Shown here: piece after piece, positions 4,815 through 12,333 of the stretch
How positions within the stretch are numbered: the first letter of the stretch is position 1
Layout: each line of letters begins with the position of its first letter
DNA from: Candidatus Bathyarchaeum sp.
GTDB taxonomy: Archaea > Thermoproteota > Bathyarchaeia > Bathyarchaeales > Bathyarchaeaceae
Assembly: GCA_026014495.1 (NCBI GenBank)
Contig: JAOZIF010000042.1
Location: 1 to 33,787 of the forward strand
DNA: 33,787 bases
Direction: 5' to 3'
The notes under the pieces: generated by a model
What the model saw: the letters and a program-made list of their open reading frames with translations, nothing else
The model's database searches: none
What the model was told of the DNA's origin: nothing
Position numbers and translations under genes: made by a program

Positions 4815-6038
4815 TTATTCACCACCATAAAGCGCTAGAAGACGTCTTTTTGTTCGATAAAAAGCTGATTGCGCACCCCTACTGCTATTTGATGATGTAG
4901 CAACAAGAGCATAAGCTGATTTGTATGTTTCAATTGGAAATGGAGGAGATACAACATTTTTCAGCTTGTATGTTTTGGCGATACTTTTAGGATATGAAGG
5001 AACTTTTACTTTAGAGAAGACTGCATGGCCTCTTTTTTGCACATTTTTTGGCAACTTACGTTTAATCACAGCATCAACTATTGCTTGTGCTGGATTGAAC
5101 TTTACCACTTTTCTTAACCCAATGTAAGAGCTTGTAAGCCGCGGGTTAATCTCCATCACAATTGGCTCCTCATCCGTTAATATCAAATCAACGCCAACAT
5201 AACCTTTCAGCCCACTTATTGTTTCAACGGCTTTTTCTGCAGTTTTTACTGCTTTCTTCTCTAGCACATGACAGAAAGGAACTGCTCCCCCATAATATGA
5301 TGACTCCTCATCAGGCGTCGCCAACGTAACAAACTGCTGATTCAGTGTAACAGCCAAAGCTTTTTCTCCCGTAGAAAATACGCATGCGCTGGCGGCTTTT
5401 CCCTTAATCAAGTTTTGAGCAATAAATTGTTGACTCGTAGATTCTTGTGCTACTTTTTTGATTGCCTTTTTTATGTCTGTTTCATCTCTGATGATGCTTA
5501 ATCCTCCACAGCTAACCCCGTCTATTGGCTTAAAGACCAATGGATAATCCAACTGTTTGGTTAGATGTCTGATGTTTTCGGGTTTTTCGTTGATGTTTAG
5601 TAGCACGGTTTGTGGAACTTTTAGCCCTAGTTTCTTTAGTCTTTCATAATTTGTCATCTTGTTTGAAACCTGATTTATGGCGTCAACTTTGCAGTTAAGG
5701 GATGTTCCGTCCGAATCAACTATGGTCTCTAAAAGTTTTTGTAATATTTGGTTGGACTCTGGAGCAATCGCATAAACGGCATCAACCAAACTTGAAAGCT
5801 CTCTTAGTTGCACCTGAACTTCGTTGGGACTTGATATCCAGATTATCTTGTCTGCTTCGTTAGGAGGATTAAACACTCTTAGTCTTGAATCCAAAAATGT
5901 TGTAACCTCATGTCCAGCAGCTTTGTAGTCAGCAATTAAGCTCTGTAGCATTGCGTAGCCTTCGCTGAGTATGCTGCTTGGAAGTTTCGTGTTGGCGTAT
6001 CCGCCTCCAGAAACGTACTCAAATATCAAAAGATTCAA
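4815..6038 (-). CDS. mfnD: ATP-grasp tyramine--L-glutamate ligase
   Basis: IFEYVSGGG, SEGYAML, IAPES, KPIDGVSCGG, GYVGVD, EINPRLTSSY; mfn context; TTG start after GAGGG. Confidence 0.88.
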   Translation of the reverse strand: MNLLIFEYVSGGGYANTKLPSSILSEGYAMLQSLIADYKAAGHEVTTFLDSRLRVFNPPNEADKIIWISSPNEVQVQLRELSSLVDAVYAIAPESNQILQKLLETIVDSDGTSLNCKVDAINQVSNKMTNYERLKKLGLKVPQTVLLNINEKPENIRHLTKQLDYPLVFKPIDGVSCGGLSIIRDETDIKKAIKKVAQESTSQQFIAQNLIKGKAASACVFSTGEKALAVTLNQQFVTLATPDEESSYYGGAVPFCHVLEKKAVKTAEKAVETISGLKGYVGVDLILTDEEPIVMEINPRLTSSYIGLRKVVKFNPAQAIVDAVIKRKLPKNVQKRGHAVFSKVKVPSYPKSIAKTYKLKNVVSPPFPIETYKSAYALVATSSNSSRGAQSAFYRTKRRLLALYGGE

Positions 6039-6079
6039 ACTTTGCCCTCACTGTATCTGTTTTGTTATAGGGAACCATA

Positions 6080-6811
6080 ATGAAAATTATTCCTGTGATT
6101 GACGTTTTAAATGGTATTGCCGTCCATGGGGTGCGTGGCGAAAGAAAACAGTATCAACCACTAAAAAGCGTTCTATGCAAGTCTCCTGACCCGCTGGAAA
6201 TTGCTTGTGCTTTTGGGTCGTTAGATTTTGATTGCCTGTATTTGGCGGATTTAGATGCAATCTTAGCAGAGTCAGCTAACTTGAACATATACACGCGGAT
6301 TGTAAAAAAAACAGGTCTTGATTTGATGGTGGATGCAGGAACCTCAGGGCTCACCCAAGCCCGTGAAGTTATGAAAACAGGTTTGTCCAAGATTGTAATT
6401 GGCTCTGAAACTTTGAACAGTTTAGATTTCGTGAGCCAAGCCATCAGCGCCTTTGGCGCAGACAAAGTTGTAGTAAGTATAGATAACAAGGAAGGGAAAC
6501 TCTTGGGTGCCTCAGCGGCTATCCGTTCAATGGATGCTGTTTTGTTTTCTCATAAGCTTGCATGCCTAGGTGTCCGTCATGTTATTCTATTGGAGTTAGA
6601 CCGAGTGGGAACTGAGCACGGAATCAACTTGACTCTTATACGAACAATTCTTAAAGAGAGTGGAGTTGATGTGCTTGTTGGTGGAGGAATAAAAAGCCTC
6701 CAAGAACTGGAGACACTAAGGGCACTTGGTGTTTCTGGTGCATTAGTAGCCACTGTTTTGCATAACGGAAAAGTGACTATTGATGAGCTCAAAACCGCAG
6801 GTTTCTTGTAG
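6080..6811 (+). CDS. HisA/HisF-related TIM-barrel protein of the type associated with methanofuran/H4MPT genes; function unknown
   Basis: IIPVIDV, LYLADLDAI, VDAG, IVIGSET, VVVSID, LDRVGT, VGGGI. 'AVHGVRGERKQYQPL' is the signature of the non-histidine HisA-like group. No his genes nearby. Confidence 0.8.
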   Translation: MKIIPVIDVLNGIAVHGVRGERKQYQPLKSVLCKSPDPLEIACAFGSLDFDCLYLADLDAILAESANLNIYTRIVKKTGLDLMVDAGTSGLTQAREVMKTGLSKIVIGSETLNSLDFVSQAISAFGADKVVVSIDNKEGKLLGASAAIRSMDAVLFSHKLACLGVRHVILLELDRVGTEHGINLTLIRTILKESGVDVLVGGGIKSLQELETLRALGVSGALVATVLHNGKVTIDELKTAGFL

Positions 6812-6830
6812 ATGTTACTTTAAGAATTAG

Positions 6831-8036
6831 GTGAGAAGTATGCCCGCAGAGACTGAACACAAAGCAACCAAGATGCCTGAACAGGGTTTGTCCCAAAACG
6901 CAGTCCTTGACGAGCTTGAAACAAAACTTCAGCGTGACTTAACATATTCTTCAGGCAAAATCTTGTGTTCCATGTGTACAAATCCCCACAATTTTAGCAA
7001 ACAAATCTACCGCCAGTATATTGAAAAGAACTTGGGAGACCCCAGCCTTTTTCCAGCAACTACAGAACTGGAGCAAGAAACCGTAAGTATGCTGGGTTCA
7101 ATGCTTTCTAACCCCCATGCATCTGGTAGCATCGTTTCTGGCGGAACTGAAGCCAACATTGTTGCGCTCTGGGCAGCAAGAAAGCTTGCAAACAAGGAAC
7201 GTGGCGAAGTTGTTGTTCCTGTTTCTGCACATTACTCATTTGACAAGGCATGCGACCTGCTGAATCTGAAACTGGTTAAGGTTAAGCTTAACAATAATTT
7301 CCAAATTGACGTGAAAGCCGCTGAAGATGCTATCACAAAAAAAACTGTGGCAATTGTTGGAGTGGCAGGCACAACAGGACTGGGCGTTGTTGACCCCATC
7401 CGTGAACTATCAGAAATTTCTTCGAAGTATGACCTTTATTTGCATGTAGATGCTGCATTCGGGGGCTTTATGCTTCCATTCCTTAAGGAGTTGGGCTATG
7501 TTTCTTTAGATTTTGATTTTAGTTTACCCAGCGTTTGCTCGATTACTATTGATCCTCATAAAATGGGTTTGGCTCCTATCCCCGCAGGTGGACTACTGTT
7601 CAGGGGCAAATTGTTGGCTGAAGTTGTCAGCACAAAGATTCCGTATCTGTCTGGAGATGAAACAGAGCACTCTACTCTTCTGGGAACCCGGTCAGGCGCC
7701 TCTGCATTAGCAGTTTGGGCATTACTAAAACATCTTGGACGCGCAGGATACCGAGATTTAACCGAACAATGCCTCGGGCTAACATTGAAGCTTGTCGATG
7801 GGATTGAACGGATTGATGGTTTAAATGTTGTGACTAAGCCCACCTTGAATGTGGTTGGAATAAAACCCGAAAAAGTAGATGTGAATTTGATTTTTCAGGC
7901 GTTAAGACAACGTGGTTGGGCAGTTTCCCTTTTCTCAGACTACATTCGAATCGTAATTATGCCCCACACCAAACCATTACACATCAAACGTTTCCTTGAG
8001 GAGCTGCAGAAAATAGTATATGCTATAACCAAATAG
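6831..8036 (+). CDS. mfnA: PLP-dependent L-tyrosine (and L-aspartate) decarboxylase
   Basis: ILCSMCT, NLGDPSLFP, SGGTEAN, HVDAAFGG, IDPHKMG (PLP Lys), LLGTRSGA. The start may be GTG 6831 or ATG 6840/6873. Confidence 0.92.
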   Translation: MRSMPAETEHKATKMPEQGLSQNAVLDELETKLQRDLTYSSGKILCSMCTNPHNFSKQIYRQYIEKNLGDPSLFPATTELEQETVSMLGSMLSNPHASGSIVSGGTEANIVALWAARKLANKERGEVVVPVSAHYSFDKACDLLNLKLVKVKLNNNFQIDVKAAEDAITKKTVAIVGVAGTTGLGVVDPIRELSEISSKYDLYLHVDAAFGGFMLPFLKELGYVSLDFDFSLPSVCSITIDPHKMGLAPIPAGGLLFRGKLLAEVVSTKIPYLSGDETEHSTLLGTRSGASALAVWALLKHLGRAGYRDLTEQCLGLTLKLVDGIERIDGLNVVTKPTLNVVGIKPEKVDVNLIFQALRQRGWAVSLFSDYIRIVIMPHTKPLHIKRFLEELQKIVYAITK

Positions 8037-8091: not shown

Positions 8092-9336
8092 TTACTCTTC
8101 TCTTTTTGTTGGCTCTTGAACTTTAAACAGTGTCAAGAAGAGACATGGAACAAACAGGATTGCTGAAATGAGAAAAGGAAGCGCAGGAGACAAATATTGG
8201 TACATAAAACCGCCCGAGAGTTGACCCAGAGCACTTAGAATGTTGAAAAAAAAGTTGGTGCTGCCAATTATTTTTCCACGGTTATCACGTGCTACAAAAT
8301 CTGCCATTAATGCTGGGTATGCACTGTTAGACAGAATCAATGCTACGCCAAAGCAAAGAAGACTTATTGACATAACTATGATGTTTCCGTAGACAAAGCC
8401 AATCATTCCGGGAATAAACAGTAGCCAAGCTGCCATTAATGGCTTTTTTCGTCCAAGCTTGTCAACAATTTTGCCGCAAGGCAACGCTGACAAAATGTTC
8501 ACGACGGCAAACCAACTCATTAATGCTGCCCACTCAAGTTCTGTTATGCCTACAACTTCTGTGGCGTAAAAAATTAGATTAAGCGAGCACATAAACCATG
8601 CAAAATGATAGATTGCAAAACTCCCGAAAAGAAACAGCATCGCCTTTGATTGTGTTTTTAGTGCATTTGCGCTTTCAATTATGGCCTTGGGAACGTTTCT
8701 GATGGTATCAATTATTATGTTTCCTTCAGCTGTGGTTTTTAGTGTTTCTTTGAATCTTATTCTTAAAATGGCTGCTACGAGAAACGCTACGGACACTGTC
8801 ATGTACGCAATTTGCATTCCTTGTATTAGACCAAATTTAACAGCCAATACTCCTGCAATGATGGGTGAAGGAACCGAAATATAATGAAGCAGATTTACTA
8901 TTGAATAATATGTGCCTCTTTTTTCTGGGGATGTTGAGTCAGCTACAAGTGCTTGAAGTGCTGGCTGGTAAATCATGAACAGGTTTTGTAGTATCGTTGC
9001 TATCATAAAGAACTGCCAATTAGGCGCGATGGCAAACAGAAAATAAGTTAATGATATTCCAAATGTCATGATTACGGTTAGTCGCCGTCTTCCATGCTTG
9101 TCTGCGAGGTATCCTCCAGGGATTTGAACCATCGCTAATGTTGCGTATGCTGCAAAGCCGATTAATCCAACAATGTAAGGGCTGCCTCCTAGTCCTTCAA
9201 TGTACTTAGGATAGTATGTGCTGGGTATTGCTGTTGTAACAAGGATTATGGCTAATGTTACTGTGTTGATTAGTATGTTCCCTTTAATGAATGAATACTC
9301 ATTTTTTAGTTTAGACAGAATAGCCAACCGTTTCAC
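8092..9336 (-). CDS. MFS transporter
   Basis: About 12 TM segments; MFS motif A twice (GGYLADKHGRR; GKIVDKLGRK). Confidence 0.93.
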   Translation of the reverse strand: MKRLAILSKLKNEYSFIKGNILINTVTLAIILVTTAIPSTYYPKYIEGLGGSPYIVGLIGFAAYATLAMVQIPGGYLADKHGRRRLTVIMTFGISLTYFLFAIAPNWQFFMIATILQNLFMIYQPALQALVADSTSPEKRGTYYSIVNLLHYISVPSPIIAGVLAVKFGLIQGMQIAYMTVSVAFLVAAILRIRFKETLKTTAEGNIIIDTIRNVPKAIIESANALKTQSKAMLFLFGSFAIYHFAWFMCSLNLIFYATEVVGITELEWAALMSWFAVVNILSALPCGKIVDKLGRKKPLMAAWLLFIPGMIGFVYGNIIVMSISLLCFGVALILSNSAYPALMADFVARDNRGKIIGSTNFFFNILSALGQLSGGFMYQYLSPALPFLISAILFVPCLFLTLFKVQEPTKREE

Positions 9337-9378: not shown

Positions 9379-10308
9379 CTACAGAATTTCTCCTACTACA
9401 TTGATGGGTTTGCGAATAAAAAAGGACAATTCGTCTAGTTTTTCTTTGCTCATTGTTGTTAGAACTACTGTAGCTGGTCCAGCGGACTTGTTTATGTCCA
9501 GTTCTGTGTTTTCACTCATTTTTAGCTGGCGCCCAATACTATACGCCAACATTTGCGCCTCCCTAATTATCCCAAACGACCCGACGGGCACAATGTCATG
9601 AATGAAACTTTTTCTAGCTAACGCGGTAACGTCTCTAAGATTAGCAATTTCTCCTCTAGCTTCTGCAGGAATTACTGCATCTCCAACTTTTGCTGTTCCT
9701 ATCGCAACTACCAAGTCGTTGGGTCTAGTTTTTCCAAGCCGCAGCTCGTCTTCGTTTGCTAGTCCAACAACTGTTATTCCTGCGCCAGTTTGTGTGGTTT
9801 CAAAATTTTCTTCTGTATTTTCCTTAATAACTTGGTTGGGTTCAAGCCCTAATTCTCTGACTTCTTTTCTTATTCCTTCAATTATTTCGTTTCCTGTGGG
9901 TTCTTTTTCTGTACCTAATGTAACTGACACCGAAATAGGGAACGCACCTGTAGCCGCAACATCCATTAATGCTACCCTTGCCAGAAACTTGCCCACAATT
10001 TTGCCGCTCGTCTTAATGTTATCCATTGGTTTGGGTCCAACTCCGCCCGACGAAGAAGACCCTACTACTATAGCGTGGCCTGTGGGCATTTTCATGATTG
10101 ACACGTCCCCGCGTGTTACGTATGAAATCTGAGATGGCTTCACTCTGAATGTTGTTGGTCTTAGTAGTGTTCCAACGTTTTCCACGAAGTGAATATAAAC
10201 AATTAATGCTTGGCGGATGACTTCCGATCTGCTAAGGTCATGTCTTTTGGCTAGTTTTTCTAAATCTTTCACAACTTTATTTGGTAAACGAACGTTTACA
10301 ACATTCAT
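9379..10308 (-). CDS. Ribbon-helix-helix DNA-binding domain fused to a degenerate CblS-like (PurM/AIR-synthase fold) domain; putative alpha-ribazole-responsive regulator
   Basis: Residues 1-40, MNVVNVRLPNKVVKDLEKLAKRHDLSRSEVIRQAL, match the CopG/NikR RHH pattern. The rest is colinear with the protein at 10916-11689 (GPKPMD, ARVALMD, EPTG, PAEARGEIA, PVGS, SAGPAT). SD GAGGTGA upstream. Confidence 0.85.
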   Translation of the reverse strand: MNVVNVRLPNKVVKDLEKLAKRHDLSRSEVIRQALIVYIHFVENVGTLLRPTTFRVKPSQISYVTRGDVSIMKMPTGHAIVVGSSSSGGVGPKPMDNIKTSGKIVGKFLARVALMDVAATGAFPISVSVTLGTEKEPTGNEIIEGIRKEVRELGLEPNQVIKENTEENFETTQTGAGITVVGLANEDELRLGKTRPNDLVVAIGTAKVGDAVIPAEARGEIANLRDVTALARKSFIHDIVPVGSFGIIREAQMLAYSIGRQLKMSENTELDINKSAGPATVVLTTMSKEKLDELSFFIRKPINVVGEIL

Positions 10309-10327
10309 TTCCCATCACCTCACACTA

Positions 10328-10344
10328 CACTTGTATTACATGTG
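10328..10344. promoter_or_regulatory. 17-bp imperfect palindrome CACTTGTA-T-TACATGTG; candidate RHH operator
   Basis: 7 of 8 arm positions pair. It abuts the + strand BRE/TATA-like GAAAACTCTTTTATTA (10344-10359) for cblT and lies between the promoter region and SD of the divergent RHH gene. Confidence 0.65.
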
Positions 10345-10403
10345 AAAACTCTTTTATTACTTACTTTTTCTCTTCATCGCTCTCTACAATGGAGACTTAA
10401 CAC

Positions 10404-10919
10404 ATGAATAAACAACAAAACATTAATTCTAAAAAAACAATCAGCGCCCTACGCGTTTCACGAATATCAATTTTCACAGCCCTTAGCGTTATCGGCTCTT
10501 TCATAACTCCATACCCTCCTCTATCCACGATAGCCCTCGACTCAAGTCCGGGCTTCTTTGCTGCACTATACTTTGGAGGGCTCGATGGATTTGTAATCAC
10601 TGGACTTGGGCACATAGTTACGGCAGTCATAAACGGTTTTCCTTTGGGAACCTTACACTACATTATTGCCCTAGGAATGGCTTTAGCCGGAGGAGCAATG
10701 GGTCTAGCAAACAAAACAAGCAAAAAATGGGGATACATACCCGCTGCCATTGTTGCAGTGGCAATTAACACGGCTCTTTCTATGGTTATGGTTCCTACGA
10801 TGGGCTGGGCTGTCACATTTACAGCTGTTACAGTTCCTTTATTGTTGGCATCTAGCCTAAATGCTATACTCGCAACGCTTGTCTATGTTGGTGTTAGAGC
10901 TAGAAGGCTTAGAAAATGA
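10404..10919 (+). CDS. cblT: ECF S-component, alpha-ribazole transporter CblT-like
   Basis: ALSVIGSFI...STIALDSSPGFFAAL...GHIVTAVINGFPLG...HYIIA matches the CblT pattern (IALDS.P, GH, GFPL). ATGA overlap with cblS. Confidence 0.75.
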   Translation: MNKQQNINSKKTISALRVSRISIFTALSVIGSFITPYPPLSTIALDSSPGFFAALYFGGLDGFVITGLGHIVTAVINGFPLGTLHYIIALGMALAGGAMGLANKTSKKWGYIPAAIVAVAINTALSMVMVPTMGWAVTFTAVTVPLLLASSLNAILATLVYVGVRARRLRK

Positions 10920-11689
10920 CCCAAAGCTGCTTTCAACCAAAAGCCATCAAAACTGCTCGTGATGTCTCAGTTTTTGAGGTCAACTCTGATTCCGTTATAG
11001 TTGTGGGATGTGACTCTGCTGGCGGAATCGGACCAAAACCTCTAGACACAATCAAAGTTAGTGGATACACTCTGGGAAGGTTCACTGCTAGAGTGGCTTT
11101 AATGGAGGTTTTCGCTGTTGGGGCAACTCCTTTTTGTTTAACTAATACCTTAGGTGTTGAACCTGACCCAACTGGATTTGAAATTGTTGAAGGCATAAAG
11201 CATGAGGTCAAACTTGCAGGATTGGAAGCATCCTTGACTTTAATTGGGAGCATGGAAAAAACTGTAGCTGTTGAGCAAACTGGGATTGGAGTAACTGTTG
11301 CTGGTTTAACCTCAAAAAAAGGTTTGAAGATGGGATTGTCTAAGCCTGACGATTTGCTTGTCACTATTGGAATTCCAAGTGTAAAAGATGGTGTTTTGCC
11401 TGCGGAAGAACGTGGTGAGATTGCAGACTTGGAAGATGTGCTAAAGTTGATAAACTGCGACTTTGTGCATGATGTGATTCCTGTTGGCTCCCAAGGCATA
11501 CTTCATGAAGTAAATGTGCTTGCCAAAGATTGTGGTTTATGTGCTAACTTGCAATTGTCTAATGTTGAAGCTAAAATGTCTGCAGGTCCAGCAACAGCGG
11601 TTGTAGTGTCTGTTTCAAAAACTGCTTTAACCGAACTTTCTGGCTTAATTAATAAGCCAATACGTGTGATTGGCTCTTTTTGTAGTTAA
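10916..11689 (+). CDS. cblS: Alpha-ribazole kinase CblS-like (AIR-synthase-related fold)
   Basis: RDVSV, VVGCDSAGGIGPKPLD, GRFTARVALMEV, EPDPTG, GSMEK, QTGIGVTV, IPVGSQG, SAGPAT; translationally coupled to cblT. Confidence 0.8.
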   Translation: MTQSCFQPKAIKTARDVSVFEVNSDSVIVVGCDSAGGIGPKPLDTIKVSGYTLGRFTARVALMEVFAVGATPFCLTNTLGVEPDPTGFEIVEGIKHEVKLAGLEASLTLIGSMEKTVAVEQTGIGVTVAGLTSKKGLKMGLSKPDDLLVTIGIPSVKDGVLPAEERGEIADLEDVLKLINCDFVHDVIPVGSQGILHEVNVLAKDCGLCANLQLSNVEAKMSAGPATAVVVSVSKTALTELSGLINKPIRVIGSFCS

Positions 11690-12030: not shown

Positions 12031-12333
12031 ATGCGAAGATCAAAGATGGAAATGTATATCGACATCCTCAAGGTTATGGCACAAAATGGACCTATGAAAT
12101 TAACTCACATCATGTACAAAGCTAACGTAAACTGCAGTGTTTTAAAAGGAAACTTGGATTTTCTAACTCAACAGAACCTGATCGAGGAACAGGTCATAGT
12201 TAAGAGAAGAAACAAAACAAAAATCCGTTATGCAATCACAGAAAAAGGCAGAACAGTAATCAAATACTTCAACGAAGTCAATAATGCTCTGCACATTACT
12301 GAAGAACATGGTATCCCCGCGTTGATTCGCTAA
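12031..12333 (+). CDS. Winged helix-turn-helix protein (archaeal 'RRSK.EI..DIL' family)
   Basis: MRRSKMEMYIDIL...THIMYKANVN...L..L....LI...YAITEKG. Confidence 0.9.
   Translation: MRRSKMEMYIDILKVMAQNGPMKLTHIMYKANVNCSVLKGNLDFLTQQNLIEEQVIVKRRNKTKIRYAITEKGRTVIKYFNEVNNALHITEEHGIPALIR

Follow-up and report, generated by a model that had tools for sequence, protein, structure and literature searches.

The question raised by this locus is what a DNA-binding domain does on a copy of a kinase for cobamide salvage, when a second copy without such a domain is encoded right beside it. The stretch of DNA that we analysed, called the window below, comprises 33,787 nucleotides of Candidatus Bathyarchaeum sp. 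(assembly GCA_026014495.1, contig JAOZIF010000042.1, positions 1 to 33,787 of the forward strand). It contains an open reading frame (ORF) at 9379-10308 in which an N-terminal ribbon-helix-helix (RHH) domain is fused to a module resembling the alpha-ribazole kinase CblS. Both cblT, for a predicted alpha-ribazole transporter, and cblS, for a stand-alone kinase homolog, are transcribed divergently from it. We conclude that the fusion is probably a ligand-sensing and most likely non-catalytic one-component transcription factor for the supply of alpha-ribazole or its phosphate. This conclusion builds on the domain architecture, the loss of one aspartate throughout the family, an operator that is unique in its genome and found where the regulator is encoded, and what the linked genes encode, all of them computed observations. 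A sequence-only reading of the locus had already proposed that a CblS paralog became the sensor of an RHH regulator of lower-ligand salvage, and the neighbouring cblTS genes, the lost aspartate and the placement of the operator, taken as comparative sequence evidence, speak for this proposal.

The architecture of the fusion follows from profile and sequence comparisons. Residues 4-36 match the Pfam family RHH_1 (31.9 bits, cut-off 20.5) and residues 71-155 match AIRS (29.2 bits, cut-off 24), which assigns the two parts to the RHH and the PurM/AIRS families, respectively. The second part consists of an N-domain (about residues 61-185) and a C-domain (about 186-309). In a BLASTP alignment the fusion is 47% identical to the stand-alone ORF at 10916-11689 on the forward strand (245 amino acids, E 7e-75), and this identity to the adjacent CblS, together with the tree described below, makes it a member of the CblS sequence family. 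The initial description of an RHH domain fused to a full-length CblS paralog is thus borne out, and the strings that were said to be shared by the two proteins (PAEARGEIA/PAEERGEIA, KPINVVG/KPIRVIG and GPKPMD/GPKPLD) are all found in the alignment. When the PDB sequences were searched with the fusion and with a CblS profile, no usable hit turned up apart from a weak PurM match. The genome of this organism (2.19 Mb, 93% complete) has two copies of the subfamily only, namely the fusion and the stand-alone CblS; seven further AIRS-domain matches are other enzymes, including ThiL-like and PurM-like ORFs.

Next, we asked whether the neighbouring genes are really cblT and cblS. No NCBIfam model names either of them, and their top database matches are unnamed bathyarchaeal proteins. 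However, the Atlas clusters nearest to the stand-alone protein are labelled 'alpha-ribazole kinase' of Bacillota (0.96-0.97), and its stored model matches a 'CblS' cluster with a template-modelling (TM) score of 0.90. The stand-alone protein also retains all invariant residues of the CblS family, which is small (485 representative clusters at E <= 0.001 in an exhaustive HMMER search). For example, a member from Proteiniclasticum ruminis, the cluster representative of which is 37% identical, is encoded in the order cbiA - energy-coupling factor (ECF) S component - AIRS - cobU - cobS - cbiP - cbiB, and the S component of this operon shares 44% identity over 71 amino acids with the window cblT. 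A cobalamin riboswitch (RF00174, 123 bits) precedes this cbiA-cblT-cblS-cobU-cobS operon; in the window, no riboswitch was found. In one bathyarchaeal family the order is cobS-cblT-cblS. Judged by homology and gene order, the genes at 10404-10919 and 10916-11689 are a real CblT/CblS pair. The function of such a pair is taken from Listeria innocua, as given in PMC6461909, which cites Gray and Escalante-Semerena 2010. An EcfT homolog is encoded elsewhere in the genome and could energise CblT. Within the CblS family there is also a second, bacterial fusion: in Alicyclobacillus, a 475-residue protein (P0324/P0413) combines a precorrin-2 dehydrogenase/SirC-like N-terminus with a CblS-like C-terminus.

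To describe what the fusion has lost and kept, we compared 37 stand-alone proteins of archaea and bacteria with 29 fusions, down to 35% identity to the window copy. A position was called conserved if it was at least 90% conserved in the stand-alone family. There are 29 such positions, and about 23 of them are retained in the fusions. As for systematic changes (in the numbering of the window CblS), R15 is replaced by Gly in 26 of the 29 fusions, C32 by Ser in 21, E64 by Asp in 27 and S112 by Asn in 25. The clearest case is D33, which is Asp in all 37 stand-alone proteins and Thr, Ser or Ile, but never Asp, in all 29 fusions; in the window fusion it is Ser85. Of the residues of the phosphoryl-transfer site (R15, D16, D33 and E64), D16 alone is kept. 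The changes noticed earlier in the window pair (RD to GD, CDS to SSS, ME to MD and IGS to KEN) are therefore real and hold family-wide, and the same comparison confirms that the C-domain motifs, PVG(S/T)xG and SAGPAT, are retained across the fusions. On the other hand, the difference between TEEN in the fusion and MEKT in the stand-alone copy is no loss on the part of the fusion, since the wider CblS family has EEN as its consensus and the K is peculiar to bathyarchaeal stand-alone copies; this rules out TEEN as a lost motif.

The likely role of these residues can be read from the related enzyme ThiL. In an hhalign alignment with the ThiL of the same genome, D16, D33 and E64 of CblS align with the ThiL motifs GDD, NMD and ISD, and the spacing between D16 and D33 matches exactly. 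In ThiL of P. aeruginosa these three positions are Asp30, Asp47 and Asp75, and Asp47 is a strictly conserved ligand of Mg2+ and the gamma-phosphate (PMC13254938). Taken together with the loss of the D33 equivalent, the alignment indicates that the fusion has specifically lost a single metal ligand and, on the same phosphoryl-transfer side, two residues next to it. The substrate-side and dimer-interface residues of CblS are kept; by analogy with ThiL, PVG(S/T)xG and SAGPAT would form the pocket of the acceptor substrate.

Fusions of this type are not restricted to the window. We find more than 1100 homologs in the database, and the best 120 of them are nearly all 308-320 amino acids long, have the same architecture, are 69-88% identical and, where named, are labelled Bathyarchaeota or Ca. 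Bathyarchaeum. In a survey of 201 genomes of the class, 25 carry a member of the family. The fusion is divergent from cblT-cblS, as in the window, in 7 genomes and occurs without a cblS anywhere in the genome in 10; a further 7 genomes have cblTS without the fusion, and in one (G137) we see only a fragment, cut by the contig end. A further cluster of fusions comes from Methanophagales. RHH+AIRS fusions are thus adjacent to cblT/cblS in 7 of 17 fusion genomes and not in the other 10, and in other lineages they are linked to cobT. CobS is encoded in 16 of the 17 fusion genomes, compared to 57 of the 201 genomes overall. In the fusion-bearing families f1 and f2 an archaeal CobT-like gene lies beside CobS, and in the family with the order cobS-cblT-cblS CobT was found in none of 22 genomes. 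The families f1 and f2 also have two CobS paralogs (about 135 and about 90 bits), which in the genome of the window are found at C193:45325-46011 and C49:29169-29951.

In a midpoint-rooted maximum-likelihood tree, the fusions form one clade (100/96), which is nested among sequences of the CblS family and is sister (98/82) to the archaeal stand-alone clade. It follows that duplication and fusion are old and happened once, and not locally. The internal branches of the fusion clade are short, which suggests purifying selection. According to this tree, the fusion event is shared by Bathyarchaeia and Methanophagales. The sequence-only reading had suggested a local duplication (or conversion) in this archaeon, with which the single old clade does not agree; a recent local duplication is ruled out by the tree.

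If the RHH domain reads DNA, one would expect a common site near the fusion genes. We aligned 160 bp upstream of the 17 fusion genes and found an 18-bp candidate operator of the type GTAYTAC-N4-GTARTRC, typically GTATTAC-N4-GTAATAC with GTAGTGT as a variant half-site. It is present at all 17 loci, with or without adjacent cblTS. Automatic matching placed it in 15 loci, 1-14 bp ahead of the fusion start codon and 11 bp after a TATA-like ATAAAAG, and in the remaining two (L007 and L015) the motif is visible by eye. In the window the operator reads ACACTACACTTGTATTAC at 10322-10339. Note that a palindrome at 10328-10344 had been pointed out before; it is centred on the half-site next to the TATA element, and the comparative data instead define the element with two half-sites. 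With a score of 19.9 bits in a position weight matrix (PWM), the window operator is the sole site of at least 18 bits in the whole genome and the sole site in the window, and shuffled sequence gave no match of at least 16 bits. Three other matches in the same genome (16.9, 14.8 and 14.7 bits) are inside coding regions and were dismissed as targets.

The operator has a regular layout. The module operator-N11-CTTTTAT recurs both at fusion promoters and at distant promoters of S-component genes, and, going by the archaeal promoter consensus, CTTTTAT probably acts as the TATA box. The half-sites, GTAnTAC, are palindromes in their own right, with a distance of 11 bp between their centres. The half-site centres of the Arc operator are likewise 11 bp apart, from which we infer binding by two dimers.

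Which other genes have this operator? A pattern scan of five genomes gave two extra perfect sites (in G193 and G157), and both lie before orthologs of P0241, a multi-pass membrane protein of 190 amino acids that is encoded divergently from the fusion in one metagenome contig. No Pfam family matches P0241; among the named Atlas clusters, those closest to it are QueT/ECF S components (0.89-0.93), a feature-based likeness that is a lead only. In a class-wide search, P0241-like genes were found in 9 of the 10 fusion-only genomes and in a single genome that lacks the fusion, whereas no genome with cblTS has one. Scored with a PWM trained on fusion promoters only, all nine P0241-like genes in fusion genomes have an operator of 14.4-24.8 bits 60-120 bp upstream, mostly as operator-N11-CTTTTAT, and the one in the genome without the fusion has none (the best match, 5.7 bits, is inside the gene).

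Outside this group, a Methanophagales contig has a site of 24.4 bits between the fusion and an operon of a 47-residue ORF, CbpB and CobT, in which the 'cobopeptide' radical S-adenosylmethionine (SAM) protein CbpB matches TIGR04163 with 554 bits and CobT matches TIGR03160 with 459 bits. This operon (L072, 2363-3883), with its radical-SAM/SPASM protein and its bacterial-type CobT, suggests through its operator that the cobopeptide system belongs to lower-ligand metabolism. In L076, a site of 25.4 bits precedes an archaeal-type cobT (TIGR00303, partial ORF), and in L079 a site of 22.2 bits follows the stop codon of the fusion and comes before an ECF S gene; a PfkB kinase is encoded upstream. On this last contig of 2.7 kb, where the PfkB-family kinase (2-889) and the ECF S component (1941-2420) flank the fusion, there is no CblS, and the PfkB protein may take part in salvage as a non-orthologous nucleoside kinase.

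In summary, the targets identified are all either suppliers of the alpha-ribazole-phosphate pool or genes for S components. In genomes that lack the fusion, the seven cblTS loci reach 2.7 bits at most. Since the operator occurs at varied targets where the fusion is present and is missing where it is not, it travels with the regulator and not with any one target. The control of cblTS only, as first proposed, is therefore too narrow: most of the fusion genomes have no cblS to control, and sites are found at P0241-like, cobT and other ECF S genes. One further candidate target was rejected. In genus g8 (L034, 8943-11101), the fusion is convergent with an operon of an ECF S component, a GHMP kinase and a cytidylyltransferase-like protein, which perhaps serves the salvage of pantoate/coenzyme A or another vitamin; its promoter match is only 6.5 bits and the arrangement is limited to close relatives.

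There are observations that weigh against our reading of the fusion. The genome-wide counts of the operator pattern in five genomes equal those of the reversed-pattern control, i.e. there is no enrichment, so that the regulon is drawn from the orthologous placement of the sites. The promoter elements (TATA, the transcription factor B recognition element (BRE) and the transcription start) are placed by consensus. A distant fusion lineage (L074/L075) has no operator match and an ADP-ribosylglycohydrolase gene as neighbour. In this lineage (L074, 1-993; L075, 105-1127) the two genes are divergent, and their 64-bp spacer contains a different, AT-rich palindrome that may represent a switch in specificity. 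Furthermore, the DNA binding of the fusion, its ligand, the sign of the control and its catalytic inactivity are what we infer. The other two metal-binding acidic residues (D68 and D116 of the fusion) and most active-site positions are retained, and residual catalysis or nucleotide binding is possible. Finally, the 10 genomes that lack cblS encode no CblS-like protein other than the fusion, as would also fit a bifunctional enzyme and repressor.

Potentially, the 18-bp palindrome could be a mere feature of a promoter or terminator; the RHH domain would then be without a target and the fusion an enzyme with an inert N-terminal extension. The lack of mapped promoter elements and of genome-wide enrichment agrees with such a view. 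However, the sequence is found at promoters that are not homologous (cblT, P0241-like genes, cobT, the CbpB operon, ECF S), only together with the fusion and in two phyla. Moreover N5, R7, S28 and R32 of the RHH domain are invariant in the 29 fusions, and N5 and R7 are, as we assume, the residues that contact the bases. We give this explanation only the slightest chance.

The retained residues and the genomes without cblS bear more directly on a trigger enzyme, that is, a fusion which is still a kinase for alpha-ribazole (or a related nucleoside) and in addition represses its own promoter and that of the transporter. In genomes without cblS the fusion would then be the only kinase for the substrate imported by the P0241-like S component, and these genomes do have an S-component gene with an operator. 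That D68, D96, D116, E166 and most of the conserved positions are kept, and that the fusion shows higher sequence conservation than the stand-alone enzyme, would also be expected of an active protein. However, the equivalent of ThiL Asp47 is missing in every one of the fusions, and the adjacent invariant R15 and C32 are replaced as well. The genomes without cblS have CobT beside CobS, so that no kinase is needed there to make alpha-ribazole-phosphate, and seven other genomes retain a separate intact cblS beside the fusion. All in all, we consider a trigger enzyme, although it is the strongest of the rival explanations, unlikely.

What does the regulator sense, if it is one? The pocket for the acceptor is conserved, and alpha-ribazole-phosphate or its precursors are the only metabolite common to all controlled genes; for these two reasons we favour alpha-ribazole or its 5'-phosphate as the ligand. 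The same protein could respond to a different signal, such as ATP/ADP, the free lower-ligand base, nicotinate mononucleotide (NaMN) or the complete cobamide. Its regulon does include, besides cblTS, cobT and an S component of unknown substrate, and the retained acidic residues could still hold a complex of nucleotide and Mg. On the other hand, the changed part of the module is just the side of the ATP gamma-phosphate and Mg, while PVG(S/T)xG and SAGPAT are kept, and none of these other signals is shared by all the targets. A different signal therefore seems to us quite improbable.

Structure models were calculated for the fusion and for a pair of its chains. The AlphaFold model of the single chain (29-row alignment) has a mean predicted local distance difference test (pLDDT) of 85.6 and a predicted TM score (pTM) of 0.76, and shows the two RHH helices (10-22 and 27-43), which a floppy stretch (46-53) links to a body of two domains. 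In a Foldseek search, this body falls into the PurM superfamily (SelD 3u0o, ThiL 6xep/8yku, PurL, HypE and PurM; E about 1e-13, TM 0.5-0.6). For two copies of the fusion, the interaction prediction score from aligned errors (ipSAE) is 0.81 (median of three runs), compared to 0.00 for the best control; of the proteins solved as homo-pairs, 20 of 30 attained this mark, and of those solved as single chains, 1 of 23. Contacts agree between the runs to at least 86%, and the pLDDT of the partner is at least 84. The predicted two-fold interface includes both RHH residues 1-42 and residues 58-185 of the N-domain sheet. In the model, residues 1-10 of the two chains touch, although this contact may echo solved dimers. 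The model thus supports a homodimer, with a score that may partly reflect the likeness to solved dimers of the PurM and RHH families.

The sequence-only reading had also considered that the fusion pairs with CblS through the PurM-fold interface. Such a pair would tether the kinase to DNA or modulate its activity. Active sites of the PurM family are indeed located at a dimer interface, and in seven genomes the two paralogs are encoded side by side. However, such a heterodimer would bring one RHH chain only, and the RHH fold needs two; the paralogs have long been in separate clades; and in the 10 of 17 fusion genomes without CblS, operator and protein are equally conserved, which argues against an obligate heterodimer. 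From this distribution of genes we judge a heterodimer very unlikely as a general mechanism.

Returning to the reading of the fusion as a ligand-sensing regulator, the following mechanism can be proposed. Two chains would pair through their N-terminal RHH domains and the N-domains of the PurM fold to form one DNA-reading beta-ribbon per dimer, and, if Arc and CopG are a guide, each half-site of 10322-10339 would take up one of two such dimers. The operator lies between the TATA-like box and the start codon of the fusion gene, over the expected transcription start, so that binding should repress the gene of the regulator itself. As seen from the divergent cblT-cblS, the same operator is just upstream of BRE/TATA, where binding might activate transcription or, with equal likelihood, block transcription factor B (TFB) and the TATA-binding protein (TBP). 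The sensor, which descends from CblS, would most likely bind alpha-ribazole or alpha-ribazole-5'-phosphate without turnover and change its DNA binding upon doing so. The lost aspartate would have held the Mg2+ on the gamma-phosphate of ATP, and the neighbouring Arg and Cys are lost along with it. In other lineages the same protein and operator may control cobT or other S-component genes. Given that the targets feed the alpha-ribazole-phosphate pool, feedback by alpha-ribazole-phosphate would be the most economical logic.

Table 1. Positions in the window of the fusion gene, its parts, the intergenic elements and the divergent gene pair.
Feature	Positions	Strand	Details
RHH + CblS-like (PurM-fold) fusion gene, proposed regulator	9379-10308	-	ORF, 309 aa, ATG start
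RHH DNA-binding domain, aa 1-43	10180-10308	-	beta-strand residues N5, R7; helices 10-22, 27-43
Linker, aa 44-60	10129-10179	-	low confidence in model; pLDDT <50 at aa 46-53
CblS-like PurM-fold module, aa 61-309, proposed ligand sensor	9382-10128	-	
Ser85 codon	10054-10056	-	replaces family-invariant Asp (CblS D33)
Candidate 18-bp operator ACACTAC-ACTT-GTATTAC	10322-10339		two GTAnTAC-type half-sites, 11 bp centre to centre
TATA-like element CTTTTAT	10351-10357		11 bp from operator; probably common to both divergent genes
cblT, ECF-type S component, predicted alpha-ribazole transporter, proposed regulated gene	10404-10919	+	171 aa; Pfam ECF_trnsprt, E 8.5e-13
cblS, stand-alone alpha-ribazole kinase homolog	10916-11689	+	257 aa; AIRS; overlaps cblT by ATGA

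The positions of these features are collected in Table 1. Three other parts of the window deserve a mention. A gene for a transporter of the major facilitator superfamily (MFS; 414 amino acids, 8092-9336, reverse strand) follows the fusion on the same strand, at a distance of 42 bp. This arrangement recurs (75% identity) only in two genomes of the same genus (L003 and L004), and the gene may be co-transcribed with the fusion or reflect mere synteny at the level of the genus. At 12031-12333 on the forward strand there is a winged-helix protein of 100 amino acids that matches HTH_45 and, with 55 bits, stays just below the cut-off of 60 for the Sso10a family of chromatin proteins. The region 4815-8036 contains an MfnD-like ATP-grasp gene (under the NCBIfam cut-off), a barrel of the HisA/HisF family (TIGR00734-like) and an MfnA tyrosine decarboxylase (476 bits), i.e. 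a gene set of the methanofuran or beta-alanine type in a bathyarchaeon.

How does the fusion compare with known systems? With CblS and CblT of Listeria innocua it shares a full-length homologous module with the two-domain PurM fold and, in seven genomes, the location beside cblT-cblS. It differs from CblS by the additional N-terminal RHH domain, by the absence of the invariant Asp, Arg and Cys, by forming its own clade and by its occurrence in 10 genomes without cblTS. NikR resembles it as a one-component regulator with an N-terminal RHH domain and a C-terminal domain that oligomerises and binds the ligand, and in having a palindrome of two half-sites at the promoter of an uptake system, with operator binding being a prediction in the case of the fusion. 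However, we found no ACT-like, metal-binding tetramerisation domain of the NikR type: the C-terminal module of the fusion has the PurM fold, its sensor is a pseudo-enzyme, and an organic nucleoside or nucleotide, instead of a metal, is predicted as the ligand. The fusion would thus, by analogy, work like NikR while standing outside the NikR family.

A DNA-binding domain (an RHH domain in PutA) fused to an enzyme fold of the regulated pathway is also known from PutA, BirA and NadR. Those proteins are catalytically active, whereas no member of the fusion family has the strictly conserved metal ligand of catalysis, an absence that points to a pure sensor. As for the position of the operator, we note a parallel in Thermococcales, where SurR, TrmBL1 and Tgr repress from an operator downstream of TATA and activate from one upstream of BRE/TATA. 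The geometry at the fusion's own gene and at the cargo genes matches this rule, and the position of the sites would imply a dual role; the winged helix-turn-helix DNA-binding folds and the sensors of these three regulators are unrelated to the fusion.

The functional counterpart in bacteria is the cobalamin riboswitch (RF00174), which in the locus of the clostridial homolog has the operon with cblT-cblS under its control. The riboswitch is an RNA that responds to the complete corrinoid; its archaeal counterpart is a protein and probably senses a nucleoside or nucleotide of the lower ligand. A full-text literature search returned neither an RHH + AIRS/PurM-like architecture nor any protein that regulates the supply of the lower ligand, so the earlier statement that no regulator with this architecture has been described agrees with what we found. 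One-component regulators with RHH domains and sensors derived from enzymes (NikR, PutA, BirA) are known; new are the sensor fold, the operator and the regulon. In its boldest form, the claim would be that the fusion is the first protein transcription factor sensing alpha-ribazole(-5'-phosphate), built from a dead kinase, and the counterpart of the B12 riboswitch in Bathyarchaeia and Methanophagales of the type ANME-1 (anaerobic methanotrophic archaea), where through a single 18-bp operator it would repress its own gene and exert positive or negative control over cblTS, cobT and S-component genes. To this claim as a whole we assign about an even chance.

Cobamide genes of bacteria are largely under riboswitch control. 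Their regulation in archaea is little described, and the papers searched contain no regulator that responds to the lower-ligand branch. With a defined protein, an 18-bp operator and a few candidate ligands, archaeal cobamide regulation becomes directly testable, even though the hosts, Bathyarchaeia and Methanophagales, are uncultured or hard to grow. If our reading is correct, the fusion would clearly exemplify how a pseudo-enzyme can be put to use as a sensor, and one pair of regulator and operator would have been rewired onto a salvage transporter and kinase, a second S component and the de novo gene cobT. Furthermore, the sites point to substrates for the uncharacterised family of QueT-like S components and would tie the CbpB 'cobopeptide' operon to the control of the lower ligand.

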